Source of the DNA: an uncultured Chloroflexia bacterium
GTDB taxonomy: Bacteria > Chloroflexota > Limnocylindria > Limnocylindrales > CSP1-4
Reading direction: 5' to 3'
Assembly (NCBI GenBank): GCA_963734995.1
Contig: CAVTJD010000005.1
Coordinates: 462,014 to 526,013, forward strand
DNA: 64,000 nt
Both the position numbers and the translations under genes were made by a program. Below, one piece after another: positions 16,379-58,288 of the stretch (its first letter is position 1; each line of letters opens with the position of its first letter). The notes beneath the pieces were generated by a model that did no database searches, was not told where the DNA came from, and was given only the letters and a program-made list of their open reading frames with translations.

Positions 16379-18163
16379 ATGGCCACCATCGTCTATCTCG
16401 ACGCCGAGGACGAGATCACCTCGGCCGCCTCGCGAATCCGCGAGGCGGCCGATGCACGCGTCGGCCTGGTGCTCCCGTTCGGCTCACGCGTCGCGACCTC
16501 GCGGATCAACTTCCGGCTGCTGGCCCGGGAGGCGATGGACAGGGAGCGGCGCCTGGACATCATCGCGCCCGATGCGTCGGCACGCGCCCTGGCCGCCTCG
16601 GCCGGCCTGCCGGTGTTCGCATCGGTCGCCGAGTACGAGCAGGCGCTCGAGGGCGGCGACGCCGCGACGGCGGCCGGTGCGGCGGCTGCCGCGACCGGCG
16701 CGTTCGCGACCGGTGCAGCGATGGGCGGAGCCGCTGACGCGTCATCGCCCAGCGTCCCGGATGGCGGCACGGCCGACCGTGCCGCCGACACGCAGCCGCC
16801 CGACGCAGGATCCGCGGCCGTCGAGACCGAGACCGGCCGCGGCTACCGCGACCTGCCGATCGCCCGACCGGGACGCCGCGTTCCCGTGCGCGCGCTGCTG
16901 ATCGCGCTCCTTGTCGTGCTCGTGCTCGGCGGAGGCGTCGCTGTCGGCGGGTATCTGCTGCTGCCATCGGCGGAGATCACCATCACGCCGCACATCGAGC
17001 CGGTCGGTCCGATCTCGTTCGATGTCCACGCCGACCCGTCGGCGACCTCGGTCGACGCGGAGGCGGGCGTCATCCCCGCGCAGACGCTGACGATCCCCGT
17101 CTCGTCAGAGGGCGAGTTCCCGGCGACCGGGAAGCGGGTCGAGCAGACGGCAGCCCAGGGTGGCGTGCGCTGGACCAACTGCGACCCGACCGCGGCCTAC
17201 ACGATCCCGGCCGGCACCGTGGTCAAGACATCCGATGGTATCGGGTTCACGACCGACGAGCAGGTGTTCCTGCCGGTAGCAGCGCTGAGCGGGACGCCGC
17301 CCAATGTCAAGGTGAAATGCCAGACGAGCGAGGTCAGCGTGACGGCGGCCAAGGACGGCCCCGACGGCAACGTCGATGCGGGCGCGATCAAGGTCGTGCC
17401 GGCACGCTACAACCGCACCGTGATCAGTGTCACCAACCCCGCCGCCACCAAGGGTGGCAGCCGCACCGAGTTCGCCAGGATCAAGCAGGCGGATGTGGAC
17501 GCGGCGGTCGAGCAGCTGACCAAGGACATCGAGGCCCAGTTCGCCGCCGAGGTCGAGAACCCCTCACGGGTGCCGCCCGGCACCACGGCCTTCCCCGACA
17601 CCGCGGTCCTCGGTGACCCTGCTCCCGAGGTCGATCCGGCCACGCTGGTGGGTCAGGAGGTCGACTCGTTCACGCTCCGGATGACCGCGCAGGGGACCGT
17701 GCTCGCGGTCGACCCGGCCCCGGTGGAGTCGATCGCGCGCCAGCGCCTGAACGATCAGGTCGACGCGGGCTATGACCTCGTCGATGGCTCGACGACCGTG
17801 GAGGTCGGTGACGGCGAGGTGGTCGGGGGGGTGGTGACGTTCCCCGTCACCGGATCGGCCAGGGAGCTCCGCCCGGTCGACGGCCCGGCGCTGGAGGCCC
17901 AGGTGCTGGGCCTGTCCGAGGAGGATGCCCGCAACCTGCTCAGTCCCTACGGCGACGTGACGATCGTGCTGTGGCCCGACTGGGTGCATGCCGTGCCCTC
18001 GATCGACCAGCGGGTCACGCTCACGGTCAACGATCCGGTGGACACCGGCCCGTTGGCTTCGCCGGCTGCCTCGGCGTCGCCCGCCTCCGAGCCGCCGGCG
18101 TCGCCCGCATCGGCGTCGCCCGAGGGCGTGGTCGAAGGTCAGCCGGTACCATCCGCCGGATGA
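16379..18163 (+). CDS. single-pass membrane protein: ~170-aa cytoplasmic N-domain, TM helix, large beta-rich extracytoplasmic domain, Pro/Ala/Ser-rich tail
   Basis: A TM segment (LLIALLVVLVLGGGVAVGGYLLL) follows the N-terminal domain. No known family is recognised. The stop overlaps the ruvX start (ATGA). Confidence 0.6.
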   Translation: MATIVYLDAEDEITSAASRIREAADARVGLVLPFGSRVATSRINFRLLAREAMDRERRLDIIAPDASARALAASAGLPVFASVAEYEQALEGGDAATAAGAAAAATGAFATGAAMGGAADASSPSVPDGGTADRAADTQPPDAGSAAVETETGRGYRDLPIARPGRRVPVRALLIALLVVLVLGGGVAVGGYLLLPSAEITITPHIEPVGPISFDVHADPSATSVDAEAGVIPAQTLTIPVSSEGEFPATGKRVEQTAAQGGVRWTNCDPTAAYTIPAGTVVKTSDGIGFTTDEQVFLPVAALSGTPPNVKVKCQTSEVSVTAAKDGPDGNVDAGAIKVVPARYNRTVISVTNPAATKGGSRTEFARIKQADVDAAVEQLTKDIEAQFAAEVENPSRVPPGTTAFPDTAVLGDPAPEVDPATLVGQEVDSFTLRMTAQGTVLAVDPAPVESIARQRLNDQVDAGYDLVDGSTTVEVGDGEVVGGVVTFPVTGSARELRPVDGPALEAQVLGLSEEDARNLLSPYGDVTIVLWPDWVHAVPSIDQRVTLTVNDPVDTGPLASPAASASPASEPPASPASASPEGVVEGQPVPSAG

Positions 18164-18646
18164 GCCGCATCCTGGGCATCGACCTCGGCACGCGACGCAT
18201 CGGTCTGGCGGTCGCTGACGCGGGCATCGGCATCGCCACCCCGCTGACCACCATCCCGCGCGGCTCATCGTCCCATGGCCGATGCCGAGGCGATCGGCCG
18301 GATCTGCGACCGGCAGCAGGTCACAGAGCTCATCGTCGGGCTCCCGATCGATGCCGGCGGCGACGAGGGATCGATGGCGATCGCGGCCCGCGCCTGGGCG
18401 GATGAGATCGGCGGGCTCACCGGCTTGCCGGTCACGCTCCGTGACGAGCGATTGTCCTCGTTCGAGGCCGAGCGCCGGCTGGGTCGCATGCCCCGCGGCC
18501 GGTCGGGAGGACCTCCGTCGCGCGCCCAGCGCAACGCCTTTCGGGCACGGATCGATCGCGAGGCCGCGGCCATCATCCTGCAGGACGAGCTCGACGGTCG
18601 GCGCGCCGCGGCGACCGTCGCCGGTGCGCCGCCGGAGGGTCGGTGA
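18160..18646 (+). CDS. ruvX: Holliday junction resolvase-like RuvX/YqgF, interrupted by a +1 frameshift near 18265-18277
   Basis: The N-terminus MSRILGIDLGTRRIGLAVAD...PLTTIPRG is in one frame. The remainder (ADAEAIGRICDRQQVTELIVGLPIDAGGDEGSMA...DERLSS) is in the +1 frame. Removing one C from a CCC run restores the frame. Confidence 0.8.
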
Positions 18647-20049
18647 GCGTTCGCGGGGGGCGGCCCCCGCGGGACCAGTACGGCCGCGAGCCCCAGGCGA
18701 CGCCGATCCATTCCCCGGCACCGACGCGCCAGACGAACCCCTACCGGCGCACCGGCCGCTACGGACGCGGACCGGGCGACCAGCGGCGGTACTCGGCCTA
18801 CGGTGACGGGAACGGGGGCCTGGGAGGTGTTCTTCGCTTCCTCGTGTTCCTGGTCGTGCTGTCGGCCGCGGTGCTGGTCCTGATGGCCACCGTCGCCCGA
18901 CCGCTCGTCCGTGCGGTGATCGTGCCGTGGGCCTGGGACAATCCGGGCGCCCTGCAGATCGGGTTCGTATCCGACCTCGTTCGCGAGGACCTCGGCCCGG
19001 CGCTCACCGATCCCGCCGGCACGGATCCCACGATCGTGGAGTTCACCGTCGAGTCCGGTGATACCCCGGCCACGCTCGCGCCGAGGCTGGAGGAGGCGGG
19101 GATCATCCGGAGCCAGCGCGCCTTCCTCTACCTCGCCCGGCAGGACGACCTCACGCCCAGGCTCACCGCCGGGCGGTTCTCGCTCGCCCTCAACCTCACG
19201 CCCGGCCAGGTGGTGAACGGGCTGGTCGAGAACCGGATCGTGGTCCAGACGGTCCCGGTCACCTTCCGCGAGGGCCTGCGGGTCGAGCAGATGACCGCGA
19301 AGCTGGAGACGCTCTCGGGCACGAGCGTGGATCCCAAGACCTTCTATGACCTCGCGATGCACCCCACCGACGAGCTGCTGGGCGACTACCCGTGGCTGCT
19401 CGACACGTCGGTCCGGCCCAAGGGCGCCTCGCTCGAGGGTTTCCTCTATCCGGCGACCTACGACCTGCGCGTCGGCGACTCGAAGGCCACGACGGCCGAG
19501 GACCTGATCCGGATGATGCTCGACGCGTTCTACGCGCGGGTGGGCCAGGACCGGCTGGACGTTCCCGAATCACGGGGGCTCAGCTTCCATGAGGTGCTGA
19601 CGCTGGCCTCGATCGTGGAGCGGGAGGCGGTGGTCGATGAGGAGCGGCCGCTCATCGCGGGCGTTTACCAGAACCGCCTCAACCGGAAGAAGTGGCCGAC
19701 GGGCCTGCTCCAGTCCGATCCGACGATCTTCTACACCAACGACACGCTGCAGCTGGACAAGCTCGCCTTCGAGAAATGGCCGACCTACGTGTTCTGGGAC
19801 ACGCTCAAGGAGCAGCTGCCCGTACCGCTCCCCGACGCGCTGGCCGGCTACAACACCTACACGAGCAAGGGGCTGCCGCCCGGTCCGATCTGCTCCCCGT
19901 CGCTGCCCTCGATCGAGGCCGCGCTGCAGCCGAACACCAAGACCGGCTACCTGTTCTTCATCGCGAAGGGGGACGGCAGCGGGACGAGCGCGTTCGCGAA
20001 GACGAAGGCGCAGCACGACAAGAACGTTGCCAAGTATGGCGGCAACTGA
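18643..20049 (+). CDS. mltG: endolytic murein transglycosylase MltG (YceG family)
   Basis: It has an N-terminal TM helix and a YceG domain. The GTG start overlaps the ruvX stop (GTGA). Confidence 0.85.
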   Translation: MSVRGGRPPRDQYGREPQATPIHSPAPTRQTNPYRRTGRYGRGPGDQRRYSAYGDGNGGLGGVLRFLVFLVVLSAAVLVLMATVARPLVRAVIVPWAWDNPGALQIGFVSDLVREDLGPALTDPAGTDPTIVEFTVESGDTPATLAPRLEEAGIIRSQRAFLYLARQDDLTPRLTAGRFSLALNLTPGQVVNGLVENRIVVQTVPVTFREGLRVEQMTAKLETLSGTSVDPKTFYDLAMHPTDELLGDYPWLLDTSVRPKGASLEGFLYPATYDLRVGDSKATTAEDLIRMMLDAFYARVGQDRLDVPESRGLSFHEVLTLASIVEREAVVDEERPLIAGVYQNRLNRKKWPTGLLQSDPTIFYTNDTLQLDKLAFEKWPTYVFWDTLKEQLPVPLPDALAGYNTYTSKGLPPGPICSPSLPSIEAALQPNTKTGYLFFIAKGDGSGTSAFAKTKAQHDKNVAKYGGN

Positions 20050-20059
20050 CCGCCGATCG

Positions 20060-21292
20060 ATGACCACACGAGTGCTGCCGCACCCGGCCGATTTCGCGGC
20101 GCCGCCCGACGTCGCCACCCGTCGCGGCTGGCTGGAGGCGGACGCGGCCGCCCGTCCGGCGCGTCTGGCGGCGCTGCGCGAGCGGATGACCGCGGAGGGC
20201 GTCGAGGTCTACCTCGGCGCGCGCCGCGAGCACATGCGCTGGCTGACCGGGTTCGCGCTGGCCGAGGGCGAGGAGAAGGTCGCCGGTCACTCGGGGCAGT
20301 TCCTGGTCGGGGCCGAGGCGGTGATCGTCGTCACGGACTCTCGCTACACGGTCCAGGCGCGACGGGAGGCGCCCGACGCCTCGGTCGAGGAGATCGGCTA
20401 CGACCTGGCAGCTGCCTGGCCGGGGCTCCTGGAACGGCTCGGCGGACGCCGGGTCGCCGTCGAGGCGGCAGCCGTGTCGCATGCCCTCTGGCGCCGCCTC
20501 GAGGCCGCCGCCCCGACGGTGGAGCTCGTCCCAGCGGATGGCTGGCTGGAAGGGCCGCGAGCGGTCAAGACGGACGCCGAGCTGGAGCGGGTGGCCGCCG
20601 CCGCGGCCGTCGCCGACAGGGCCCTCGCGGCGCTGCTGCCGGAGATCCGCGCGGGCGTCACCGAGCATGACCTCGCGCTCCGCCTGGAGTGGCTGATGCG
20701 CACCGGCGGCGCCGAGGCCCTGGCGTTCGACGTCGCCTGCCTGGCCGGTCCCGAGGCGGCGCTGCCCCACGGCTCACCCGGCGAGCGGCCCGTCCTCGTC
20801 AATGCCGTCCTGCTGTTCGATTTCGGCGCCCAGGTCGAGGGTTACCGCAGCGACATGACGCGCACCCTGTTCGTGGGTGAGCCGACGGCCCGCGATCTCG
20901 ACCTGTACGACCTCGTCGCGAGGGCGCAGCAGGCATCGATCGATGCGGTGACCGCCTCGGTCGCCCGGGCGCGAGCCGGGGAGCCGATGGTGTCCGGCCG
21001 CGCGGCCGATGCGGCCGCGCGGCAGGTGATCGAGGCCGCCGGCCACGCCGCCCATTTCGGTCATGGCGTGGGTCACGGGATCGGGCTGGCGACCCACGAG
21101 CAGCCGAGCCTGTCGCCGTCGGCATCCGACGAGCCGCTGCCCAGCCCCACCGTGTTCTCGGTGGAGCCCGGCGTGTACCTGCCGGGCGAGACGGGGGTGC
21201 GGATCGAGGATCTGCTCCACGTCGACGTGGCGCGCGGCGTTGCGCAGCGCGTCACGGCGTTTCCGCGTGACGTCCTGGTGCTGCCCGCCTGA
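20060..21292 (+). CDS. M24 family Xaa-Pro aminopeptidase
   Basis: It has a creatinase N-domain and M24 motifs (HGVGHGIGLATHE). Confidence 0.85.
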   Translation: MTTRVLPHPADFAAPPDVATRRGWLEADAAARPARLAALRERMTAEGVEVYLGARREHMRWLTGFALAEGEEKVAGHSGQFLVGAEAVIVVTDSRYTVQARREAPDASVEEIGYDLAAAWPGLLERLGGRRVAVEAAAVSHALWRRLEAAAPTVELVPADGWLEGPRAVKTDAELERVAAAAAVADRALAALLPEIRAGVTEHDLALRLEWLMRTGGAEALAFDVACLAGPEAALPHGSPGERPVLVNAVLLFDFGAQVEGYRSDMTRTLFVGEPTARDLDLYDLVARAQQASIDAVTASVARARAGEPMVSGRAADAAARQVIEAAGHAAHFGHGVGHGIGLATHEQPSLSPSASDEPLPSPTVFSVEPGVYLPGETGVRIEDLLHVDVARGVAQRVTAFPRDVLVLPA

Positions 21293-21413
21293 GCGGGACG
21301 GGCTGAGCGTCGGGGCATCGGGCTCTGGTAGCATCCCGGGACACGCAATCGATCCCGCGCGGGAGCTCGCACGCTTCGCGAACCGCTCGCCGCGACACCG
21401 GAGCAGCCATCTC

Positions 21414-21971
21414 ATGATCAGCACCGGCGATCTGCGCAAGGGCGTCGTCATCGAGCTCGACGGCGACCTGTGGCAGATCCTCGACTACCACCACATCAAG
21501 ATGGGCCGCGGCTCGGCCCAGGTCCGGATCAAGCTGCGCAACGTCAAGAAGGGCAGCACGGTCGAGAAGTCGTTCCAGGCCGGTGACCGCTGGCCGCGTG
21601 CGCAGATCGACAAGCGCCCCGTCCAGTTCCTGTACCGCGATGGCGACGAGTTCCACTTCATGGAGACCGAGTCGTACGAGCAGTTCAGCCTGGGGGCCGA
21701 CCAGCTCGATGATGCCGTGGGCTTTCTCAAGGACGGCATGATGCTCGACCGGACCAGCTACCAGGGGGAGACGCTGGGCGTCGAGCTGCCGGTGACCGTG
21801 GACCTGGTCGTGGCCGAGACCGACCCCGGCTTTGCCGGCGACACCGCCCAGGGTGCGCGCAAGAACGCGACCATGGAGACCGGGCTGGTCGTGACCGTGC
21901 CCCTGTTCGTCAATCAGGGCGACACGCTGCGGATCGATACCAGGACGGGCGAATACCAGACCCGTCTGTAG
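21414..21971 (+). CDS. efp: elongation factor P (Arg at the loop-tip modification position)
   Basis: The 185-aa protein aligns full length with EF-P. The loop HIKMGRGSAQVR aligns with E. coli FVKPGKGQAFAR, putting R where K34 sits. Confidence 0.9.
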   Translation: MISTGDLRKGVVIELDGDLWQILDYHHIKMGRGSAQVRIKLRNVKKGSTVEKSFQAGDRWPRAQIDKRPVQFLYRDGDEFHFMETESYEQFSLGADQLDDAVGFLKDGMMLDRTSYQGETLGVELPVTVDLVVAETDPGFAGDTAQGARKNATMETGLVVTVPLFVNQGDTLRIDTRTGEYQTRL

Positions 21972-21992
21972 CGCCCCGGGCGCGAAGGCCCG

Positions 21993-25543: not shown

Positions 25544-25568
25544 TCGTGCTACTATCCGGTATCCAATA

Positions 25569-27719
25569 ATGAGCAGCAACGGGAGGGGCCCGACCGCCGT
25601 GCCGATCCTGGACCGCCTCGAAGGCCCGGCCGACCTGCGGGGGCTGACGGACGCCGAGCTCGCGCAGCTGGCGTCGGAGATCCGCGAGACGATCATCCGG
25701 ACAGTCGCGGTGACCGGCGGCCATCTCGGCTCGTCGCTGGGCGTGGTGGAGATCACGCTGGCGCTGCACCGGCTGCTGGAGTCACCGCGCGATCGGATCG
25801 TGTGGGACACGGGTCACCAGGCGTACGCGCACAAGCTCCTCACCGGGCGTCTCGAGCGCTTCCACACGCTGCGCCAGATCGACGGGGTGGGTGGCTTCCC
25901 GCGGCGGTCCGAGTCGCCGCACGATGTGTTCGACGGCGGTCATGCCGGCACGGGGCTGTCGATCGCCGAGGGCCTCGCCACGGCCAGGGATCTGCGCCAC
26001 TCGCTGGAGCGGATCGCGGTCGTGGTGGGCGATGCGGCGCTCCTCTCGGGTCTGTCGCTCGAGGCGCTCAACGACATCGGGCACCGCCAGAGCCAGCTGC
26101 TGATCGTGCTCAACGACAACGAGATGTCGATCAGCCCCTCGGTGGGTGCGCTGTCCAAGTACCTGTCCGAGATCAAGCTCTCGGTCGCCTGGCGCCAGGG
26201 CAAGACCGCCTGGGACGGGGCCACGGAGCAGATCCCCCTGGTCGGCTCGCGGCTGGTCGAGCTGTCGCGCCGCTTCCGGCAGTCGGTGGTCTCGTTCGCG
26301 CAGCCGGGCCAGCTGTTCGAGGATCTGGGCATCACCTACATCGGCGTGATGCCGGGTCACGACCTGCGGTTGCTGGAGGAGACGTTCCGGCGCGCGCTGG
26401 CGCTCAACGGACCCGTGATCGTTCACGTGCGCACGCAGAAGGGCAAGGGCTACCGACCCGCGGAGACCGATCAGGTCTCGTTCCACGGTGCGGCGCTGCC
26501 GCCGATCGCGGTCCCCGAGACCGATGCGCATGACCGGCTGCCCGCGCGGCTGCCCGGGAACGGCGACAGCATGACGTCGGCCGCAGCGGGCGGATCGGCG
26601 ATCACGCTCGGGCGTGCCGCTGACGAGGGTGCGCCCCCGTCGGCGTCGGTGATGGCCGACCGCCGGACGCCCGTGCACACGAGCGAGGGCACGGCCGAGC
26701 CATCCGCCGCGCAGGCCGCCGAGCCCGAGCGGACCCCGAACTACACGGCGTTCTTCGCCCGTGAGCTGGTGGATCTCGCGGCCGACGACCGGCGGATCGT
26801 GGCGATCACGGCCGGCATGCCCACCGGCACCGGCCTGGCCCGGTTCCAGGCGGTCTACCCGGACCGCTTCATCGATGTCGGCATCGCCGAGCAGCACGCC
26901 GTCACCCTCGCCACGGGATTGGCCCTGGGCGGGATGCGGCCGGTCGTGGCGCTGTACTCGACGTTCCTGCAGCGGGCGTTCGACCAGACCGTGCACGACG
27001 TGTGTCAGAACGACGCCCCCGTCCTCCTGGCGGTCGATCGTGCGGGGCTGGTGGGTGAGGACGGCACCAGCCACCAGGGCATGTTCACCATCCCGGCCCA
27101 GCGCATGCTGCCGAACCTGGTCATCGCGAGTCCCCGGGATGAGCAGGAGCTCCGCTCGCTGCTCCGGACCGCGCTCGCGCAGGAGCATCCGTTCGCGCTG
27201 CACTATCCGCGCGATGCGGGCTATGGCGTGGCCGCGCGCGATCCCGAGGTGCTCCCCATCGGACGCGGCGAGGTGCTGCGCGAGGGTGACGATCTGCTGT
27301 TCGTCGCCTTCGGCCCGATCGCGCACCGGGCGGTCGAGGTCGCCGAGCGGCTGGCCACCCGCGGCTGGTCCGTGGGCGTGATCAACGCCCGATTTGCCAA
27401 GCCCCTCGATCGGCAGCTGATCCTCGAGCACGCCCGTGGCAAGCGGCTGGTCGTGACGTTCGAGGAGAGCGTCGTCAGCGGCGGCTTTGGCAGCGCGGTG
27501 CTGGAGGCGTTCGAGGAGGCGCGACTCACCGATGCCGCGTATCGAGCGGTGCCGGTCCGCCTGATCGGGATCCCGGGCGACCGGTTCGTGGATCACGGCT
27601 CGGTCGCCGACCTCCGCCGGCTGATCCGGCTCGACGTCCCGGGCCTGACCGTGCAGGTCGAGGCGGCGCTGGCACAGCTGGGTGTCGGCCCCGGCGTGGC
27701 CCAGGGCGAGTCGCGGTAG
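25569..27719 (+). CDS. dxs: 1-deoxy-D-xylulose-5-phosphate synthase
   Basis: It has the TPP-binding motif GDGA...N and a transketolase-like C-terminal half. A ~60-aa low-complexity insertion lies between domains I and II. Confidence 0.95.
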   Translation: MSSNGRGPTAVPILDRLEGPADLRGLTDAELAQLASEIRETIIRTVAVTGGHLGSSLGVVEITLALHRLLESPRDRIVWDTGHQAYAHKLLTGRLERFHTLRQIDGVGGFPRRSESPHDVFDGGHAGTGLSIAEGLATARDLRHSLERIAVVVGDAALLSGLSLEALNDIGHRQSQLLIVLNDNEMSISPSVGALSKYLSEIKLSVAWRQGKTAWDGATEQIPLVGSRLVELSRRFRQSVVSFAQPGQLFEDLGITYIGVMPGHDLRLLEETFRRALALNGPVIVHVRTQKGKGYRPAETDQVSFHGAALPPIAVPETDAHDRLPARLPGNGDSMTSAAAGGSAITLGRAADEGAPPSASVMADRRTPVHTSEGTAEPSAAQAAEPERTPNYTAFFARELVDLAADDRRIVAITAGMPTGTGLARFQAVYPDRFIDVGIAEQHAVTLATGLALGGMRPVVALYSTFLQRAFDQTVHDVCQNDAPVLLAVDRAGLVGEDGTSHQGMFTIPAQRMLPNLVIASPRDEQELRSLLRTALAQEHPFALHYPRDAGYGVAARDPEVLPIGRGEVLREGDDLLFVAFGPIAHRAVEVAERLATRGWSVGVINARFAKPLDRQLILEHARGKRLVVTFEESVVSGGFGSAVLEAFEEARLTDAAYRAVPVRLIGIPGDRFVDHGSVADLRRLIRLDVPGLTVQVEAALAQLGVGPGVAQGESR

Positions 27720-29500: not shown

Positions 29501-29502
29501 CG

Positions 29503-33198: not shown

Positions 33199-33833
33199 TT
33201 GCTCGACATCCAGCCGATCGACTTCGTCTGATCGCGATCTTCCTGCTGGTCGCGTTCCCGGTCCACGAGTTCGCGCATGCCGCGACCGCGTATACGCTCG
33301 GTGACGCGACCGCGAAGCTATTCGGACGCCTGACCCTCAATCCGGTCGCGCATTTCGACCCGATGGGCGGCCTGATGACCGTGATCTCGATCCTGTTCAG
33401 CCCGATCCTGTTCGGCTGGGCGAAGCCGACCCCGGTCAATCCGGCCAACCTGAGGGATCGACGGAATGGCGAGCTGTACGTTGCGCTGGCCGGCCCGATC
33501 TCGAACCTGTTGATGGCGGTTCTCGGGTGCGTTCGTCTCTGCGCCGCTCTGCTCGCCGCAGTACGCGGGCGGCTCTTCCACGTCGGGCTCTACACGGGTC
33601 TGTTCCTGTTCGTGTTGTTCAACGTGGCCCTGGCGTTCTTCAACCTGATCCCGATCCCGCCGCTCGACGGCTCGGTCGTGCTGTTCCGGTTCCTGTCGCC
33701 GAGCCAGGTGTGGCAGATCCGGCCCTTCCTGGCGCAGTACGGCATGTTCATCGTGATCGCCGCCGTGCTGGTGCTCGGGGCAGGCCCTGGGCACGCTGAT
33801 CTTCAATGTCTGCAGTGTCCTGGTGGGCGCTAA
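33199..33833 (+). CDS. small site-2 protease (peptidase M50) family protein; N-terminal start in a different frame (frameshift ~33225-33232)
   Basis: HEFAHA (HExxH) and NLIPIPPLDG motifs are present. The HExxH frame has no ATG/GTG/TTG back to the upstream stop. A TTG at 33199 in the +1 frame gives MLDIQPIDFV, and a single C insertion after ttcgtc (gtctga -> gtcctga) would join the two frames. Confidence 0.7.
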
Positions 33834-34303
33834 GGCCCGCCAGCTCCGTGTGCATCTCGTTGCCCGAGTGCATCCGGAGGAGCGTGTCGCGCTGGCAGCC
33901 TGGCTGCGACCGGCCGAGCTGGCGCTGTTCGACGGCATGCACGTCGCCGACCAGCGTCACGGGCTGGACGTGATGGCGTTCCTGCGGCGGACGGGCGTGC
34001 GCGACCGCGACGTGCTGGTCGCAGGCCTGCTCCATGACTGCGCCAAGGGCGACACGGGCGCCGGGCCGCGGATCGCGTGGTCGCTGGGCGAGGGGTTCGG
34101 CGGCTGGGTGGTCGACGTCGCACGATGGGTGCCCGGCTGGAGCGGCCCGCTCGACCGGCTCCGCGATCATGCCGAGGCCTCGGCGGCGATGCTCGAGACG
34201 GCAGGCCTGTCGTCGCTTGCCGTCGACCTCGTTCGATCACCAGGCAGCCCCGCGCGACACGCAGTATGGGGCCCGCTTCCACGCCGCGGACGAGGCGAGC
34301 TGA
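33823..34303 (+). CDS. HD-domain phosphohydrolase family protein (3' end/frame uncertain; runs in frame into scpA without a stop)
   Basis: The HD motif is MHVADQRHGLDV...LVAGLLHDCAKG. It has a GTG start. The alternative frame ends in a TGA overlapping the scpA ATG. Confidence 0.6.
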
Positions 34304-35169
34304 TGACGATCGCCGCATCGCCGTCGATCGCGTTCGGGGATGGGCGGCGACCCGAGGCCGCCACGCGGGTGACGCTGCCCGCGTTCGACGGGCCGCTGGC
34401 GCTGCTGCTGACGCTCATCGAGGCGCGCCAGCTCGACGTGCTGACCGTGCCCCTGGGTGCGCTCGCCGAGGCCTATCTGGACGCCCTCGCGACGCTCGAC
34501 GAGGACCGGATGGGGAACGTGTCGGCGTTCGTGGCGATCGCCAGCCAGCTGATCCTGATCAAGTCGCGAGCCCTGCTGCCGAGGCACACGGACGATGGCG
34601 CGGTCGCGCTGCCGGACGACGGCCCCGACCCCGAGGCCGAGCTCCGGGCGCGGCTCATCCTGTACCGCGCCTTCCGTGACGCGGGCGCGCTGCTGCTCGA
34701 CGAGGCGCAGCGGCGCGTGGGCCTGTTCCATCGCGAGGCAGGCACGGCACGGGTCGCCGGGCTTGCCGGTGCGCGGCCGGCCGAGACCGAGCCGCTCTCC
34801 GTCGCGCTGCTCACCGACGCGCTCGACGGCCTGGCCCGGATCGTTCCGCCGCCCCCACCACCGCCCGAGACGATCCGCCGGACCGTGACCCTGACCTCGC
34901 GAGCGGCGATCATTCGCGACGCGCTGCGCGGCGCCCCGGCGATCGTCCTGCAGGAGCTGCTGCACGGCGTCCGCGATCGGGTCGTGGTCGCGGTCACCTT
35001 CCTGGCCATGCTTGAGCTCATGAAGCGACGCGAGATCGTGGTCGAGCAGGCCGAGCCGTGGGGCCCGATCGTCGCGCGCCGGACCACGGCGGAGGAGCGG
35101 GCCGCTGCCGGGCTGCCGACCGTCGACGAGGAGGCGCCGCTGGACGAGTCGCTGGGGTCGTTCGCATGA
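34303..35169 (+). CDS. scpA: segregation and condensation protein A
   Basis: It contains PAFDGPLALLLTLIEARQLDVLTVPLGALAEAYLDAL. Confidence 0.85.
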   Translation: MTIAASPSIAFGDGRRPEAATRVTLPAFDGPLALLLTLIEARQLDVLTVPLGALAEAYLDALATLDEDRMGNVSAFVAIASQLILIKSRALLPRHTDDGAVALPDDGPDPEAELRARLILYRAFRDAGALLLDEAQRRVGLFHREAGTARVAGLAGARPAETEPLSVALLTDALDGLARIVPPPPPPPETIRRTVTLTSRAAIIRDALRGAPAIVLQELLHGVRDRVVVAVTFLAMLELMKRREIVVEQAEPWGPIVARRTTAEERAAAGLPTVDEEAPLDESLGSFA

Positions 35170-47153: not shown

Positions 47154-47169
47154 CTTGGCGTCGCCGCGC

Positions 47170-47302
47170 GCCGAGCCCCGCGAGCCGAGCCCCGCGAGCC
47201 GAGCGCCGCGAGCCCGGGGCTGAGCGCGGGGCGCCGGCGTCCGGCAGTTACGGCCCACCCGGACGGATGCCGCAGTCACGGCCCACCCGGACGGATGCCG
47301 CA
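47170..47302. repeat. intergenic repeat block: 3 x 14-bp (gccgagccccgcga) followed by 2 x 28-bp (g.tacggcccacccggacggatgccgca)
   Basis: These are direct tandem repeats that can be seen by eye. Confidence 0.8.
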
Positions 47303-47416
47303 AGCTCGGTGACCCGGACTGACGCCGCATGCTCGGCCAACCCGCGATAATGGGCTCAGCGCACCCGCCGACCGTGGGGCGTCCATCACCGCCTGACCAT
47401 CGGAGGCCGACGCCGA

Positions 47417-49771: not shown

Positions 49772-49805
49772 CACGCAGACAGGCTCGATGGCGGGAAGGG
49801 GTGCG

Positions 49806-51207
49806 ATGACGGGTGGGCTGCTCCCGGTCGAGGCCGCGCAGGCCACGGTGCTTGCCGGTGTCGAGCCACTCGCCGGGATCGAGCGCGTCGCGCCCGAGAC
49901 AGCCCTTGGCAGGGCGCTGGCCGAGGCCGTGTTCGCGAGCACCTCGCTGCCTCCGTGGGACAACTCGGCGATGGACGGGTACGCGATCCGGGCGGCCGAT
50001 GTGGCCGAGGCGCGCGACAGCCGGCCGATCCGCCTGACGGTCGTGGGCGAATCGCGCGCCGGGGTCACCCCTGACGCACGGGTGCTCGCCGGGACGGCGA
50101 TCCGGATCGCGACGGGGGCGCCGATGCCCGACGGTGCGGACGCGGTGGTCCCGGTGGAGCTCACGACGCCGCTCGATGCCTCGGGCAATCCCGGACCTCG
50201 CGGACGCGACGCGACCGGTCCGCTCCCGGCGGCGTGCCTCGTCCACGAGCGAGTGGCCGCCGGTGGCGCGGTCCGCGCCGCGGGGAGCGACGTGGTGGCC
50301 GGCGCGGAGGTGGTGGCCGCGGGCCTGCCGGTGACGCCGGCCGTGGTCGCCCTGGCCGCGGGCTGCGGCGCAGCGACCGTGGCGGTTCGGCGCCGGCCGG
50401 TGGTGGCCGTGCTGGCCACGGGCGATGAGCTCCGGGCCCCGGGCGCCGATCTCGGGCCGGCGGGCATCCCCGATGCCAACGGCCCCGGCCTGCGGGCGCT
50501 GGTCACCGAGGCGGGCGCGGTCCCGCTCGACCTGGGGATCGCCGTCGATGATCTCGCGGATGTGGAGCGGCGGCTCAGGCGCGGTGTCGCCGGCGCCGAC
50601 CTCGTGATCGTGTCGGGCGGTGTGTCGGTCGGCCCGTACGACCACGTTCGAACGGCGTTCGATGCGATCGGCCACATCGACCTGTGGCGGGTGGCCGTCC
50701 AGCCGGGCAAGCCGTTCGCCTTCGGACGCGCGGATGGATCGCGTGGCGGCGCGGACGTGCAGCGTGGCGGCCCGGATGGATCGCGTGGCGGTCCGGATGG
50801 ATCGCGTGGCGGGGCGGGGGAGGACGCGTCGCCGGTGCTGCTGTTCGGGCTGCCGGGCAACCCGGTGTCGGCGTTCGTCACGTTCGAGCTGTTCGTGCGG
50901 CCGGTGATCCGCCGTCTCGCGGGGCACCGTCAGCTCCACCGGTCCGTGGACCGGGCGGTGCTCGAGGAGCCGGTCACCAAGAGTCTCGGACGGCGCGGCG
51001 TACCAGCGGGTGACCGCGCTTCGAGAGCCGGACGGCACGCCGATGCGCAATGACCGGGGCAGGGTCAGGGTCCGCCTGGCGGGCGGGCAGGGGAGTCACG
51101 TCCTGTCGGCGCTCGCGGCCGCGGATGCGCTGGCGGTGATCCCCGAGCCGCTCGAGCGGGTCGCCGCCGGGACCGACGTCGAGCTGCGCTGGCTGGATCG
51201 CGGCTGA
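49806..51207 (+). CDS. moeA: molybdopterin molybdotransferase MoeA, interrupted by a +1 frameshift near 50990-51002
   Basis: The N-terminus (SLPPWDNSAMDGYA), GTGD and GLPGNPVSA are in frame 0. The conserved C-terminus (RLAGGQGSHVLSALAAADALAVIPE) is in the +1 frame (listed ORF 51010..51207). The ATG at 49806 has a GGAAGGGG RBS. Confidence 0.85.
50731..50814. repeat. 4 x 21-bp in-frame tandem repeat inside moeA encoding (A/P)DGSRGG heptads
   Basis: The unit cggatggatcgcgtggcgg.. is repeated four times. Confidence 0.8.
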
Positions 51208-51917: not shown

Positions 51918-52468
51918 CCGGCGATCCGGCGGCCGGCACGGCCAGAACGGCCCTCGTCATCACCGTCAGCGACCGGGTCGCGGCCGGGCGCCGCGAGGAT
52001 GCCTCCGGGGAGGCCGTGGCGGCGCGGCTGGCGGCGCTCGGGCACACGATCGAGCGCCGCTCGGTCGCCGACGAAGCCTGGGCCATCGAGCAGGCGCTGA
52101 TCGACGGGGCGGCGTCGTTCCCGCTGGTCATCACCACCGGTGGCACCGGGCTGACGCCGCGCGACGTGACCCCGCAGGCGACGCTCGCCGTGCTCGACTA
52201 CGAGGTACCGGGGATCGCCGAGGCGATGCGCGCCGACGGCCGGCGGTCGACGCCGTTCGCGGCGCTGTCGCGCGGGCTGGTCGGGGTCCGAGGGCGGACA
52301 CTGATCGCGAACCTGCCCGGGTCGCCGAAGGGCGCCATCGAATCGCTCGAGACCCTGATCCCGATCCTGGACCACGCGCTCGAGACGCTCGCGGGCCCGT
52401 TCGACCACGGGGCCGCCCGTGCGGCCGGACGTCGAGACCTCCCGCCGGGATCCGCGGAGGACGCCTGA
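51914..52468 (+). CDS. mog: molybdopterin adenylyltransferase Mog/MoaB family
   Basis: It contains ALVITVSDR and TTGGTG. It has a TTG start with a TTGA overlap. Confidence 0.8.
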
Positions 52469-52471
52469 CCG

Positions 52472-54592
52472 ATGCTCGAGCCGTTCGCCCACGTCCCCCT
52501 GTACCCGCTGGTGCTACCCCTGTTCTGGGGCGCCGCCGGGTTCTTCGCGCTGGCCATGGCGCGCCATCTGCGGGTGTTCGCGGCTGTCGGCGCGACGGCC
52601 CCCACCGAGCATCCCTGGCGGCGCCTCGCCGGCGTCGGCCGGTACGCCCTGCTCCAGGTCCGGATGTTCCGCGACCCGCCCGCCGGCCTGATGCATTTCA
52701 GCATCTTCTGGGGCTTCGTCCTGCTCACGATCGGCACCGCCAACATCGTCACCGTCGGCCTGATCGAGGCCGTCGTCGCCTATCCGCTCGACGGGCTGCT
52801 GTGGGCGTTCGTCAACGCGCTCCAGAACGTCATCGCGCTGGTCGTCCTGGCGGCCGTGGGCTACGCGTTCCTGCGGCGGCTCGTCATCAAGCCCGAGCGC
52901 CTGTCGCTCAATCGCGATGCGCTGCTGATCCTGGTCCTCATCGGCGGCATCGTGGCGGCCGAGCTCGGGGCGCAGGTGTTCGAGGTGGCGGCACGCGGCG
53001 AGGTCCCGGGCGCGTTCGTGGCCAACGCGATCGGCGGGCTGCTGACGGGGCTCGATCCGTCGATCAGCCAGGCCGTGTTCGCGGTGCTGTGGTGGACGCA
53101 CATGCTGCTGGTCGCGGCGTTCCTCGCCTACCTGCCGTTCTCCAAGCACCTTCACATCGCGACGGCGATCCCCAACGTCGCGCTGCGCAAGCTCCGGCCG
53201 CGAGGCGAGCTGCCCGCGATGGACCTCGAAGCCGAGGACGCCACGTATGGGCATCCGGACGATCGCCGATCTGAGCTGGAAGGACCTGCTCGACGGCTTC
53301 ACCTGCACCGAATGCGGTCGGTGCCAGCAGGCGTGCCCCGCGCACGCCACCGGCAAGCCGCTCAACCCCAAGAACCTGATCATGGACATCCGCCACGAGG
53401 CGGTCGCGGCCGAGGCAGGGCTGCCGCTGATCCCCAACTCGCCGTCGGTTCGCACGCCTTCGGACTCGACGACACGCTCCAGCCCGCGGCGCTCGACCGG
53501 CCGCTGGTCGACGTGGCGATCCCGTACGACGCGGTCTGGGACTGCGTGACCTGCGGCGCCTGCGTCGAGGCGTGCCCGGTGACGATCGAGCACGTGGACA
53601 AGATCGTCGGGCTGCGGCGCAACCTGGTGCTCGAGGACTCCCGGTTCCCGCAGGAGGTGACGGCCGCGTTCCGGGGGATGGAGTCGGTCGGCAACCCGTG
53701 GGGTCAGCCGCCGTCGGCGAGGCTCGACTGGGCCAGGGGGCTGCCGTTCGAGGTCCGGACCGTCGCCCAGGTCCAGGCCGCCGGTGAGCTGGACGCGCTC
53801 GAGGTGCTGTACTGGGTGGGCTGCGCCGCCGCCTTCGACGACCGCAACCGGAAGGTCGCCCGCGCCGTCGCCACCTGCCTCGACGCCGCGGGTATCTCGT
53901 TCGCGGTGCTGGGCCAGGAGGAGAGCTGCACCGGCGACCCGGCGCGGCGGATGGGCAACGAGTACGTGTTCCAGATCCTGGCCGGGCAGAACGTCGAGAC
54001 CCTCAACCGCTACCGGATGGGGGAGCGAACGATCGTGACCGCGTGCCCGCACTGCTTCAACACGATCGGCAACGAGTACGGCCAGCTGGGCGGTGACTTC
54101 AGCGTCCGCCACCACTCGGCGTACCTGTCGTCGCTGGTGGCCTCGGGTCGCCTGCGGATCGGACCCGATGGGCTGCCGGGACGCTCGGTCACCTACCACG
54201 ACAGCTGCTACCTCGCCCGCTACAACGGTGTCATCGACGCGCCGCGCGACGTGCTGGGCGCGATCCCCGGCGTCGAGCTGCGCGAGATGGAGGCGAGCGG
54301 GCGGCAGACGTTCTGCTGCGGCGCCGGCGGCGGCCGGATGTGGATGGAGGAGACCCGCGGCACGCGGATCAACGCCGAGCGCACCCGCCAGGTGCTCGAG
54401 ACCGGCGCCGAGGTGCTGGCCACCGCCTGCCCGTTCTGCATGACGATGCTCCGCGACGGGCTGTCCGATGCCGGGCGCGCCGAGGGCGAGGACGCGGTGA
54501 CGGCCCAGGACATCAGCGAGCTGCTGGCCGCCTCGATCGTGCCGTTCGCCGGCCGCAACGTCCCCGAGGATCGCCGGCTGCCGGTGGTCTGA
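52472..54592 (+). CDS. membrane-anchored (Fe-S)-binding oxidoreductase (N-terminal polytopic domain + 2x[4Fe-4S] + two CCG domains; HdrD/GlpC-like), carrying two compensating frameshifts (~53249 and ~53450)
   Basis: The first ferredoxin motif [12 protein letters not shown] is only in the alternate frame (listed ORF 53247..53549). The second motif [12 protein letters not shown] and the CCG motifs (CCGAGGG) are in the main frame. Confidence 0.8.
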
Positions 54593-54628
54593 GTCTCCGG
54601 GCGCGCTCGGCGCCGCCGCCGGACACGG

Positions 54629-54647
54629 CTATACACTGGGTGTATAG
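54629..54647. promoter_or_regulatory. perfect inverted repeat CTATACAC-TGG-GTGTATAG overlapping a TATAGT -10, 8 nt upstream of the padR GTG (candidate PadR operator / leaderless promoter)
   Basis: It is an AT-rich palindrome in a GC-rich context. Confidence 0.55.
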
Positions 54648-54656
54648 TGCGCGGCG

Positions 54657-55232
54657 GTGTCAGTCCGTCATGCGCTTCTGGGTCTGCTCGAGCCCGCGCC
54701 GCGGCACGGCTACGAGCTCAAGCATCTGTTCGATGGCTACTTCGCCCCGGACCGCCCGCTCGCCTTCGGGCAGGTGTACGCGACGCTCGCCCGCCTGACG
54801 CGGGACGGGGAGGTCGTGGTCGCCTCGATCGACCAGGACGAGGGACCCGAACGCAAGGTGTACGCGATCACGGAGGCGGGGGAGCGGGTGCTCGATGCGT
54901 GGCTGACCGAGCCGTCGGATCCGGAGCCGCACCTCCAGGCCGTGCTGTTCACCCGGGTGACGTTGGCCGTGCTGACGGGTCGGTCCGTGGTCGAGCTGCT
55001 CGATCGGCAGCGACACGCGCACCTGGCCCGGATGCGGGAGCTGACCGCGCTTCGACGCACGGCACCGCCGGCGGTGGCGCTGCTCGCCGACTACGCGCTG
55101 TTCCATCTCGAGGCCGACCTGCGCTGGATCGAGGTCACCGCCACCCGGGCAGCAGATCTTGCCACCCAGCTGCCGGGTCTGACCGCCGGCGCCGCCGCTG
55201 CACCGATGCCACCCACGGAGGGTCACCAATGA
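54657..55232 (+). CDS. PadR family transcriptional regulator
   Basis: It has the PadR wHTH region (LLGLLEPAPRHGYELKHLFDGYF...GQVYATLARLTRDGEV). Confidence 0.85.
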   Translation: MSVRHALLGLLEPAPRHGYELKHLFDGYFAPDRPLAFGQVYATLARLTRDGEVVVASIDQDEGPERKVYAITEAGERVLDAWLTEPSDPEPHLQAVLFTRVTLAVLTGRSVVELLDRQRHAHLARMRELTALRRTAPPAVALLADYALFHLEADLRWIEVTATRAADLATQLPGLTAGAAAAPMPPTEGHQ

Positions 55233-55975
55233 TCGAGACCACGTTCGACCCGGGCGAGACGCGGGCCGTGGGCCACCCGATGGACGCGGCGAACACCGGT
55301 TCGGCCGTCATGATCGATGCCGTCGGGCTCGAGAAGCGGTTCGGCATGACCGAGGCGCTGCGCGGCGTCGACCTCAGCCTGGCGGCCGGCGAGGTCGTGG
55401 CGGTGATGGGGCCCAGCGGCTCGGGCAAGTCGACGTTGCTCCACTGCGTGGCCGGGATCCTGCGGCCGGACGCCGGCCGGGTCACGTTCGCGGGGCGCCG
55501 GATCGACGACCTGCGCGAGGCAGAGCGGAGCCGGCTTCGGCGGACCGAGTTCGGGTTCGTGTTCCAGTTCGGGCAGCTGGTCCCGGAGCTGCCGGCGATC
55601 GAGAACATCGCGCTGCCGATGCTGCTCGACGGTGTCCACTGGCGCGAGGCGCTCGATCGGGCAGCGGGCTGGTTCCCGCGGCTCGATCTGGAAGGGCTCG
55701 AGCAGCGCCGCCCGGGTGAGCTCTCCGGCGGACAGGCACAGCGGATCGCGGTCGCCCGTGCCCTGGCGACGGGGCCGCGCGTGCTGTTCGCGGACGAGCC
55801 GACGGGCTCGCTCGACTCGCTCGCGGGCGAGCAGGTGATGGAGCTGCTGACCGACGTTGCGAGGTCGGCCGGCACGTCGGTCCTGCTGGTCACCCACGAG
55901 CCGCGGATCGCCGCCTACGCCGATCGCGAGGTCATCGTCCGGGACGGGCGGATCGCGCCCGACTCTCCCCGATGA
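55229..55975 (+). CDS. ABC transporter ATP-binding protein (MacB/LolD-type)
   Basis: It has Walker A (GPSGSGKST), the signature (LSGGQAQRIAVARAL) and Walker B (LFADEPTGSLD). It has the ATGA overlap with padR. Confidence 0.9.
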   Translation: MIETTFDPGETRAVGHPMDAANTGSAVMIDAVGLEKRFGMTEALRGVDLSLAAGEVVAVMGPSGSGKSTLLHCVAGILRPDAGRVTFAGRRIDDLREAERSRLRRTEFGFVFQFGQLVPELPAIENIALPMLLDGVHWREALDRAAGWFPRLDLEGLEQRRPGELSGGQAQRIAVARALATGPRVLFADEPTGSLDSLAGEQVMELLTDVARSAGTSVLLVTHEPRIAAYADREVIVRDGRIAPDSPR

Positions 55976-58288
55976 TCCGGCTCGGCTGGCGGCTGTCGCT
56001 CGCGGGGGGACGGTCGGGCGCCCTCGCCACGTCGCTGACCGCGCTGGCCGTGGCGTTCGGCACCGCCATCCTGCTGTTCGCGCTCTCGTTCGAGCCGGCG
56101 CTGGCCACCCGCTACGACCATTCGGCATGGCGCGACACGGGGGGCATGCTGGACCCGGCCACGGGCAACCAGGGTCTCATGCTGTCGCGGACCGACGATC
56201 ACTGGCAGGGGCGGCCGCTGGTCGCGCATGGACGTCGCCGCGCTGTCCGCGGACGCGCCGGTGCCGCCCGGTCTCGATCACGTGCCCGGCCCCGGCGAGG
56301 TCTACCTGTCCCCGGCGCTGGACGCCCTGGTCGCTGTAGAGCCGTGGGCCGAGCTCGGCGCCCGGTTCGGGCCGGCGACGGGGACGATCGGCGAGGCCGG
56401 GCTGATGGCTCCCGACGAGCTGGCGGCGGTGGTTGGACGCGAGCCCGAGGCCCTCCGGGCCGACGGCGCCCGGATCGTCACGGCGCTCGATGGGACCGGG
56501 CATATCCCGACCCCCACCAACCCGCTGATCGAGGTGCTGGTGGTGGTTGCCGTGGTCGGCGCGCTGACGCCGGTCGCGGTGTTCGTGGCCACGGCGACCC
56601 GGCTGTCCGCTGCGCGCCGGGAGCAGCGCCTGGCGGCCCTGCGCCTGGTGGGCGCGACACCGGGCCAGGTCGCCGTGCTCGCGGCGATCGAGGCGCTGAC
56701 CGCGACGGTGCCCGGCGCGCTGGGTGGCGTGCTCCTGTTCCTCGCCCTGCGCCCGCTGGTCGCCCTGATCCCGCTCAACCAGGCCAGCTGGTTCCCCAAC
56801 GCGATCGCGCCGCCGATCGCCCCAGCCGCCGCGCTGCTGCTCGTCGTCCAGGTGGTCGGCGTCGGCGCCGCGGTCGTCGCCCTGCGACGCGTGTCCGTCT
56901 CGCCGCTGGGCGTGAATCGACGGGCCCGCCGGCGACCCCTGCGCCGGATCCGCCTGCTGCCGGTCACAGCCTGCTTCGCGGTGTTCGTGGCCGTCGTCCT
57001 CCGGATCGCCGCGTCGAGCACGGGCATCGGGGACCTCATGCTGTGGACCCTGGTCGGCAGCTTCCTGGGGATCATCGTGGGCATCGGGCTCGCCGGTCCA
57101 TGGATCACGATGCTCGTCGGGACCGTCGTCACGCGGCTGGCCCGCGGGCCGGTCGGGCTGCTGGCGGGGCGCCGGCTGACCGACGACCCACGGAGCGCCT
57201 ACGGCGCCATCGGCGGGATGGTCATGGCGGTGTTCGTCGGCAGCACCTATCTCTCGATCGCATCGTTCGCGACCACCACCGGTGTCGCCGGTTTCGAGGA
57301 CCTGGCGGTCCGCCCCGACGTGCTGATGGCGACGGTCCCCGCGCAGCGTGCCGATGTCGCCGCAGCCGGGCTGCGGGCGGCCGCCGACGCTGGAGCGAGC
57401 GAGGTTGTCGAGCTGCGCGAGGTGCTGATCGACAGCGACAACGGGTTGCAGAAGGGAGTCGTGGCGTCGTGCTCGTCGCTCGCCCGGGTGGTCTCCGCCC
57501 CATCCATGACGTGCGGCGATGGCACGGTCCACCTGGGTCCCGGCGGGATCGCGTTCGGAGAGGCGATGATCCAGACCTTCCGGTTCCTGGGCGGCGTCGG
57601 CCTCCCGGTCACGGCCCCGGCTCCCGAGGTGACGCTGCGCGTCCAGCCCACCGGTATCGACCACTACGTTGCGCCGGACGCGACGGCCGGGCCGCGGCTC
57701 GGGTTGCCCGCGGTGATCATCGAGCCGGCGGCCTTCCCCGACGGTGGAGCGTCGTTCGCCCCGACGCGCATCGCCGCCCTCACCGATGGCTCGCCCGCGA
57801 GCGTGGAGCGGGTGAGGACGGCGCTCGAGGTCGCGATGCCGACGGCGGTCGTGGCCACGGTCGGGGAGACGCTGACCGACAGCTCGGCAGCGGTGGTCGA
57901 GCTGGGCAGGATCGTGTCGATGGGCGTCGTCGTGGCGATGCTGCTCGCGGGTGCGAGCCTTGCGATCGCCGCCGCGAGCGGGCTCGTCGAGCGGCGCCTC
58001 CCGTTCGCGCTGCTCCGTCTGGGCGGCGTGTCGGTCCGGCGGCTCCAGGCCGTGCTCCTGCTCGAGGCGGCCGCGCCGCTGGTGACCGTGGCGTTGCTGT
58101 CGGCGGTGCTGGGCGCGGCGGTGGCGCAGGTCCTGCTCCACGCGATACCCAGCGGCGGGTCACCGCCACCTGACCCGGGCGTCGTGGTGTTGCTCGCGAT
58201 CGCGACCGCGGGCGCGATGAGCGTGGTGCTGACCGCGATGCCGCTGGTGGGCCGCGTCACCGCGACGGAGGCGACCCGGTTCGAGTAG
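55972..58288 (+). CDS. ABC transporter permease, FtsX-like (two FtsX/MacB-type domains), with +1 frameshift near 56205-56230
   Basis: The N-terminal TM is in frame A (listed ORF 55972) and the remainder in frame B (listed ORF 56228..58288). It has the ATGA overlap with the ATPase. Confidence 0.8.

Follow-up and report, generated by a model that had tools for sequence, protein, structure and literature searches.

Nine one-base frame breaks in six conserved genes of a Limnocylindria contig, most likely errors in the consensus of a long-read metagenome assembly

Six conserved genes in the stretch of DNA analysed here (64,000 nucleotides from an uncultured soil bacterium, called the window throughout) are interrupted by nine one-base insertions or deletions. 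These indels very probably arose as errors in the consensus of a long-read metagenome assembly, most likely one built from Nanopore reads only, and not as mutations of the organism. The initial annotation had already proposed consensus errors and not pseudogenes. That proposal now gains strong but indirect support, since the contrast in frameshift rate between assembly classes of related loci, the undecayed ancestral frames beyond the breaks and the megabase length of the source contig together make consensus errors a well supported explanation. Each one-base error would shift the reading frame, so that gene callers emit truncated, fused or internally garbled proteins; the six genes themselves are most likely unbroken.

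The affected genes encode RuvX, a small site-2 protease (S2P), an HD-domain protein, MoeA, an Fe-S oxidoreductase and an FtsX-type permease (Table 1), and of the nine events, each of exactly one base, six add a base and three remove one. Placement relied on DNA alignments with relatives, on frameshift-aware protein-to-DNA alignment and on the frames of Pfam domain matches; offset tracking in pairwise blastn comparisons, which is noisy in variable regions, was used as support only. When support was counted strictly, with homologues restricted to those that are themselves in one frame, it came to 29/29 at each Fe-S site, 20/20 for moeA, 5/5 for ruvX, 4/4 for the HD gene and 3/4 for the extra base of S2P, an agreement far above what chance would give. 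After repair, the six proteins align end to end with their homologues. It had been claimed earlier that the named conserved genes each need one base added or removed, at a density of one event per 8-10 kb: all of them are broken by a one-base frame change as placed, but S2P carries three events and not one, and the actual density is higher: one event per 4.2 kb in the span where breaks were reported and, for the window as a whole, one per 7 kb.

Table 1. Interrupted genes of the window and the one-base events placed in them (+1, extra base; -1, missing base).
Gene	Position	Strand	Events
ruvX (YqgF-type resolvase)	18160..18646	+	+1 within 18256-18280, best placement CCC 18272-18274 (~18271)
Small site-2 protease (S2P, Peptidase_M50; Pfam M50 match)	33199..33833	+	-1 at ~33228/9; +1 in GGGG 33777-33780; -1 at ~33830, just before TAA 33831
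HD-domain gene	33823..34303	+	+1, A34236 or T34237 in CGATCACC
moeA (molybdopterin molybdotransferase)	49788..51207	+	+1 at 50999/51000 (GGC-G-TAC)
Fe-S oxidoreductase (two 4Fe-4S motifs and CCG domains)	52472..54592	+	compensating pair: +1 at 53249-53252, -1 at 53455/6
FtsX-type ABC permease	55972..58288	+	+1 within 56215-56226, best placement GTC-G-CGC ~56224

The Pfam RuvX profile is matched over its positions 2-36 in the frame of 18160 and over positions 37-133 in the next frame; the extra base of ruvX is seen with six homologues in the protein-to-DNA alignment and in the DNA alignment too. In S2P, the first missing base leaves the HExxH motif in a different frame from the TTG start at 33199. 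A canonical start codon was looked for in the frame of this motif and none is present, and the GTG starts of three relatives (L083, L084 and L106) align with the TTG of the window in the other frame. The basis of this N-terminal event is few homologues. The last two events of S2P replace its final 17-18 residues: the extra base (33774-33780) appears with four homologues in the protein-to-DNA alignment, and the missing base before the TAA is supported by L083 and L084 in the DNA alignment and by three loci in the offset analysis. A mid-gene pair in S2P (33528-33599) was rejected, as its placement differs by homologue and it falls in a variable loop.

As given, the HD gene runs past its own TGA (34301-34303) and on into scpA, which starts with the ATG at 34303, and the resulting ORF, ending at 35169, bears both the HD and the SMC_ScpA Pfam matches; this fusion of HD and ScpA appears to be artificial. 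The HD/scpA junction had been listed as a further candidate, and the extra base is borne out there by all four homologues, whose tails match the one restored after correction at 34237, HQAAPRDTQYGARFHAADEAS. The Pfam matches of moeA are split between MoeA_N and MoCF in one frame and MoeA_C in the next, and the event is found in the DNA alignments with L001, L002, L004, L161 and L162. Between the paired events of the Fe-S gene, 67-69 codons are out of frame, including the motif CxxCxxCxxxCP; the Pfam Fer4 families match the alternative frame, and the frame of the first 4Fe-4S motif differs from that of the rest of the gene. The DNA alignments agree with both events, and a lengthening of GG to GGG would be the most parsimonious reading of the extra base. 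The FtsX match of the permease lies in the downstream frame, and its extra base is seen with L010 and L004; these homologues are few and all those available for the permease carry frameshifts of their own, so this event stands outside the strict count.

The rest of the window reads normally. About 30 further genes that could be tested are unbroken and free of in-frame stops; larger lesions and in-frame stops were looked for in all ~35 tested genes of the window and none was found. Domain coverage is full-length and in a single frame throughout the first 18 kb, in ispH and der and in the region of 58-64 kb. Several other candidate breaks were rejected. Apparent frameshifts at 46.7, 52.4 and 59.9 kb, produced by chaining of tblastn HSPs, are false and lie at gene boundaries, because off-frame ORFs, read from stop to stop, are long in a genome of 72% G+C. 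A frame switch in the GC3 plot at 11.5-12.2 kb comes from two short, distinct genes that precede alaS. The isolated events suggested for dxs, xseA and moaC are each supported by only 1-2 of 17-27 homologues and lie in linkers or at termini.

Conservation continues across the breaks. Identity to homologues in the ancestral frame is at least as high after each break as before it, except in ruvX (64% after versus 73% before) and in the very short terminal segments of S2P; it reaches 82% beyond the break versus 76% before it in moeA, and 76% versus 72% in the HD gene. The segment between the two events of the Fe-S gene, read in the ancestral frame, is 93% identical to L161 and L162, versus 88-90% in its flanks, and the DNA still perfectly encodes the 4Fe-4S cysteine motif in the other frame. 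L161 (a short-read JGI contig) and L162 (a long ENA contig), which are 99.5% identical to each other, are the closest relatives, and moeA and the Fe-S gene are intact in both; the padR-ABC-FtsX module is not present in either. All nine lesions are private to the assembly of the window, the single-frame homologues being intact at each site. A second assembly of the same species was looked for and none was found, the best relatives being ~83% identical in DNA.

The frameshift rate of related loci depends on how they were assembled. Among the relatives (Limnocylindria, Chloroflexota), 17 loci of MFD MAGs, which are Nanopore-only, contain 55 high-confidence frameshifts in 172 kb (0-26 per locus, the worst having 26 in 12.5 kb), and 82 loci from short-read or other assemblies contain one in 347 kb; the loci were sorted into the two classes by record title, the platform of each individual "other" contig being presumed. 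By the identical test, the window has 7 high-confidence events in 40 kb. The corresponding rates per 10 kb are 3.2 for the MFD loci, 0.03 for the short-read and other loci and, in its tested coding sequence, 1.75 for the window; the frameshift rate thus tracks assembly technology and not clade. The window also matches the Nanopore-only class in its excess of insertions over deletions (6:3, versus 38:17 in the MFD loci, about 2:1) and in the clustering of its events (4 of 8 gaps shorter than 600 nt, versus 60%), and the positions of the frameshifts in the Nanopore-only relatives all differ from those of the window. The MFD MAGs were assembled from Nanopore reads only, with Flye in meta/nano-hq mode followed by one round of Medaka, and the MFD-LR catalogue was itself examined for this kind of consensus indel (PMC12313526). 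It is established that indels in Nanopore consensus sequences lead to frameshifts and that near-finished genomes need about 40-fold coverage (PMC9262707).

The lesions resemble those described in Nanopore-only consensus sequences (PMC9262707), for which IDEEL-type length ratios and short-read or homology polishing are in use: single-base indels split conserved ORFs, their density varies highly between contigs and they are lacking in short-read assemblies of relatives. The uncorrected Fe-S ORF (706 aa) is identical to a public protein (P0007; NCBI/ENA) encoded on a single contig of 1,068,228 bp. We infer that the source of the window is a long-read assembly, the reads of which would not back the indels. 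Clustering is stronger than uniform placement would give (P about 0.001), with local patches at 33.2-34.3 kb and 51.0-56.2 kb, for which a local drop in read depth or the presence of mixed strains may be responsible.

The initial annotation had placed the events mostly in C/G runs, which does not hold: one event falls in a run of four (GGGG in S2P), for two a placement in a run of three is possible (CCC in ruvX and GGG 53249-53251 in the Fe-S gene), and the rest fall in runs of 1-2. Miscounting of C or G homopolymer lengths is an unlikely source of the errors, even if G or C makes up 7 or 8 of the 9 inserted or missing bases and 5 or 6 events can be written as a change of one base in a run of 1-4 identical bases, counting contractions from two bases to one at ~33228, 33830 and 53455 besides the CCC, GGGG and GGG sites. 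A G+C content of 72% gives such figures by chance, and runs are not enriched around the events: no event of the window has a longest nearby run outside the range of 2-4 bases, and the mean longest run within 4 nt is 2.6 at the events of the window versus 2.5 at random positions, and 2.3 versus 2.4 for the 55 events of the Nanopore-only relatives. Moreover, a run of four is touched by one event only, none of the 91 runs of at least five bases in the window is affected within the ~40 kb of tested coding sequence, and a change of run length does not describe the events in the HD gene, moeA and the FtsX permease. Homopolymer-length miscalls as the mechanism are thus not supported, and the consensus errors would not be classical long-homopolymer miscalls. 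The location of the events outside long homopolymers, the best-known error mode of Nanopore sequencing, counts against reading them as errors; classic descriptions stress such homopolymers, whereas the window, whose platform we infer, and the Nanopore-only relatives share a lack of homopolymer enrichment and a 2:1 excess of insertions. Enriched 4-mers were looked for near the 55 events of the Nanopore-only relatives and none remained after correction for 96 tests. Two events of the window fall in GATC, which occurs 784 times in it, so this is at chance level.

Genuine frameshift pseudogenes occur in decaying genomes such as those of Mycobacterium leprae and host-restricted Salmonella, where small indels interrupt conserved genes, sometimes several per gene, as here. 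Recent mutations that left young pseudogenes in all six genes, with the frame restored by a compensating indel in two cases, would account for single genes with several lesions (three in S2P and two in the Fe-S gene, a multiplicity expected also of a truly dead gene, which counts against the error reading), for the two +1/-1 pairs and for the clustering of events in neighbouring genes; the loss of FtsX would be tolerable, since the padR-ABC-FtsX module is accessory. We nevertheless regard this as very unlikely. Decay in the form of nonsense codons, larger deletions or a fall in conservation past the break was sought in the window and, the indels apart, none of any kind was found; unlike the pseudogenes of decaying genomes, these lesions are not shared with relatives. 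The core genes ruvX and moeA would be broken while moaC and moaB, operon partners, are intact, and the supposed compensation in the Fe-S gene would still destroy the cluster-binding motif. In addition, this is a free-living clade, and such frameshifts are essentially missing from its short-read assemblies, whereas its Nanopore-only assemblies show many, at unrelated positions. That only some indels are real, for example the pairs in the S2P tail and the Fe-S gene as compensated frameshifts that have become fixed in a Limnocylindria population in nature, is highly improbable; if so, the protease would have a new C-terminal tail and the Fe-S protein would lack one cluster. Programmed ribosomal frameshifting or transcriptional slippage could also restore full-length products from the sequence as given, by a one-base shift of the kind known from prfB, dnaX and the transposases of the IS3 family, where the sites are conserved and slippery or stimulatory signals are recognisable. 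Nothing specific speaks for it here, and the chance of it is minimal. Six unrelated genes, none known for recoding, would need shifts in both directions; a slippery heptamer, a site stimulated by a stop codon or an enriched motif was seen at none of the nine sites of the window. This reading seems effectively refuted because the shift sites are not conserved: no homologue has them, and at each of them the relatives keep a single frame.

Taken as consensus errors, the nine indels almost certainly amount, on the sequence comparisons made here, to an ordinary data-quality warning and not to biology, useful for quality control only. Without repair of the frames, this contig would yield wrong pseudogene counts, gene-content calls and selection analyses, and wrong pathway calls for molybdenum cofactor synthesis, RuvX and ScpA. 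Several Nanopore-only genomes that serve as species representatives of the clade are far worse than the window, and comparisons of Limnocylindria built on Nanopore-only MAGs need frameshift-aware gene calling or polishing. The skewing of downstream analyses foreseen in the initial annotation is already public: the garbled Fe-S ORF is the representative of its own protein cluster, with most of its Fer4 Pfam matches gone.

Six genes in the window carry a total of nine one-base events that break the reading frame, and the DNA alignments with relatives contain a one-base gap at each site. The events were detected by three-frame translation, Pfam searches and DNA alignment with relatives, and were placed by frameshift-aware protein-to-DNA alignment. 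The Pfam RuvX profile is divided between two frames, with positions 2-36 in the first and 37-133 in the next; MoeA_C is in a different frame from MoeA_N and MoCF, which share one; and in the Fe-S oxidoreductase the first 4Fe-4S motif is off-frame with respect to the remainder of the gene.

One-base events in window coordinates (+1, extra base; -1, missing base; S2P, small site-2 protease)
Gene	Event	Position	Remark or basis
ruvX	+1	within 18256-18280	frameshift-aware alignment
S2P, event 1	-1	~33228	between TTG start (33199) and HExxH motif; frameshift-aware alignment
S2P, event 2	+1	33777-33780	in GGGG; frameshift-aware alignment
S2P, event 3	-1	directly ahead of TAA stop at 33831	
HD gene	+1	34236/7	own TGA read through, ORF continues into scpA
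moeA	+1	50999/51000	
Fe-S oxidoreductase, event 1	+1	53249-53252	
Fe-S oxidoreductase, event 2	-1	53455/6	
FtsX	+1	within 56215-56226	L010 and L004

Every gene that the initial annotation had named as frame-broken is confirmed as such, and so is its candidate at the HD/scpA junction. It was right that S2P is broken, but there are three events in that gene instead of one; likewise events are frequent, but the proposed density of roughly one per 8-10 kb was too low, nine events giving one per 4-7 kb. Six bases are extra and three are missing. The events are clustered, with four in 1.0 kb (33.2-34.2 kb), four in 5.2 kb (51.0-56.2 kb) and none found in 1-18, 34.3-50.9 or 56.3-64 kb; gaps shorter than 600 nt account for four out of eight (P ~0.001 under uniform placement). 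Two +1/-1 pairs, spaced by 54 and ~206 nt, enclose a garbled stretch after which the frame is restored.

In a stricter census, restricted to homologues with an unbroken frame of their own, support for the events is complete at both Fe-S sites (29/29 homologues each), in moeA (20/20), in ruvX (5/5) and in the HD gene (4/4), and is 3/4 for the S2P insertion. FtsX was left outside this census since no frameshift-free homologue is long enough, and its event rests on two relatives' loci, L010 and L004. The other testable genes of the window have no consistent frameshift and no in-frame stop against single-frame homologues; full-length Pfam matches in a single frame cover ispH, der and the first 18 kb, and the stretch at 58-64 kb is likewise intact. 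A frame switch at 11.5-12.2 kb, considered as a further break, was rejected as two small genes. Dxs has a low-complexity linker of roughly 85-95 residues between conserved domains (26500-26800), which is highly variable among relatives and a source of spurious frameshift calls by the aligner.

The window has a G+C content of 72% and nearly every gene on the + strand, in the order alaS, ruvX, mltG, pepP, efp, xseA, dxs, tlyA, nadK, recN, xerD, small S2P, HD gene, scpA, scpB, rluB, cmk, ispH, der, moeA, moaC, moaB, Fe-S oxidoreductase, padR, ABC ATPase and FtsX. The nearest public loci belong to uncultured Limnocylindria (Chloroflexota); many are MFD metagenome-assembled genomes (MAGs) and others JGI metagenome contigs. 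The closest are L161, a 5.9-kb JGI contig, and L162, a long ENA contig (ERZ25039533 contig_34444, 1.09 Mb), which are 99.5% identical to each other and each share ~83% DNA identity with the window. In both, moeA, moaC, moaB and the Fe-S gene are intact; breakage of these genes is therefore not a general trait of the lineage, and L162 indicates that clean long-read contigs occur. The padR/ABC ATPase/FtsX permease module (54648-58288) is present in L001, L004 and L010 but absent from these two loci, which continue past the Fe-S gene with a small gene on the reverse strand and an acyl-CoA dehydrogenase; the module is apparently an accessory cassette, subject to gain or loss in this group.

Comparison with relatives makes it very probable, in line with the initial annotation, that the nine indels are consensus errors of a long-read assembly and not mutations of the organism. 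At the level of sequence comparison there is no decay besides the indels, ancestral-frame identity to the closest intact homologues being as high past each break as ahead of it: 93% between the Fe-S pair versus 88-90% in the flanks, 82% beyond the moeA break versus 76% before, and 76% versus 72% for the HD gene; exceptions are ruvX (64% past the break, 73% ahead of it) and the very short end segments of S2P. The CxxCxxCxxxCP cluster motif, which the Fe-S pair would scramble, is perfectly encoded in the other frame. The same aligner and a high-confidence filter (at least 8/15 identical residues on each side) were applied to every fetched relative. The 17 loci of MFD MAGs, which are Nanopore-only, gave 55 frameshifts in 172 kb of aligned coding sequence (3.2 per 10 kb; 0 to 26 per locus), whereas 82 other loci (short-read MAGs and metagenome contigs from JGI and elsewhere) gave one in 347 kb (0.03 per 10 kb). 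The window gave seven in 40 kb (1.75 per 10 kb), two of its nine events being too close to gene ends for the filter. The relatives' events lie at positions other than the window's (L001, for example, is broken in moeA and FtsX at sites of its own), and the MFD profile is close to that of the window, with insertions to deletions of 38:17 against 6:3 and 60% of gaps below 600 nt against 4/8.

Within the same clade, frameshifts are many in conserved genes of the public Nanopore-only species-representative MAGs L003 (CAVXNF010000006.1; 26 high-confidence events in 12.5 kb), L025 (8 in 9.5 kb), L012, L001 and L004; L002, L017 and L021 have none, a very large spread in quality. For the MFD-LR MAGs, Nanopore reads were the sole input to assembly by Flye (meta, nano-hq), followed by a single round of Medaka, and the authors examined lower-coverage MAGs for Nanopore-associated errors (PMC12313526). 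Indels in Nanopore consensus sequences are documented to shift the frame of gene calls, near-finished genomes needing about 40-fold coverage (PMC9262707). The frame breaks are most likely an instance of this well-known problem of assemblies made from long reads alone, and no feature of the biology.

That the genes are genuine recent pseudogenes would account for those hit several times; it is very unlikely, leaving unexplained the lack of other decay, the core genes affected and the contrast between assembly technologies. Programmed frameshifting is effectively excluded, since conservation of the shift sites is seen in none of the homologues. Classical homopolymer miscalls, mostly in C/G runs, were the form of error favoured by the initial annotation. 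Several events can be written as a change of one base in a short run relative to L161, L162 and the homologous protein P0091 (GG to GGG at 53249-53251, CC or GG to a single base at 53455, GGG to GGGG at 33777-33780), and short runs are ubiquitous in a 72% G+C genome; the HD, moeA and FtsX events are not expressible in this way. Run-length statistics contradict that reading and make it improbable: the mean longest run within 4 nt is 2.6 at the window's events versus 2.5 at random positions, and 2.3 versus 2.4 in MFD relatives, and none of the window's 91 runs of at least five bases has a frame-breaking indel within the tested genes. Around the 55 MFD events no motif is over-represented.

The indels are most likely residual long-read errors concentrated in poorly supported patches of consensus, for which low depth or mixed strains would be the likely causes. 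A gene caller would then split ruvX, moeA and FtsX, fuse HD to ScpA, begin the S2P ORF downstream of the catalytic HExxH motif and give it a false tail, and report an Fe-S ORF of full length in which 69 residues are garbled. The repaired Fe-S protein, used as a query, retrieved P0007 (706 aa), which is identical to the uncorrected ORF and is recorded in NCBI and ENA on one contig of 1,068,228 bp, a size typical of the relatives' Flye-style 'contig_N' records such as L162. The garbled ORF (52472-54592) is verbatim a cluster representative in a public protein collection. P0007 matches only CCG and Fer4_8, versus seven families in intact homologues, most Fer4 families being lost. The frame error has already spread into protein resources. 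The earlier warning that gene-level analyses would be skewed holds, and this contig and related public MAGs should be polished or frame-corrected ahead of any such analysis.

As assembled, moeA contains an in-frame tandem repeat (50728-50817; 21 nt x 4.3 copies) encoding the reiterated peptide DGSRGG(A/P), an insertion versus more distant homologues. Intergenic tandem repeats occur between typA and cysteine desulfurase (21/42 nt; 6812-6902), between M13 peptidase and mnmA (33 nt x 2.1, 97% matches; 10294-10363) and upstream of the gene at 47351 (14 and 28 nt; 47164-47344). GATC is found 784 times in the whole window (~1 per 82 nt) against roughly 160 predicted from base composition alone, an excess that is probably an effect of codon usage (ATC, GAC/GAT) in a high-G+C genome.
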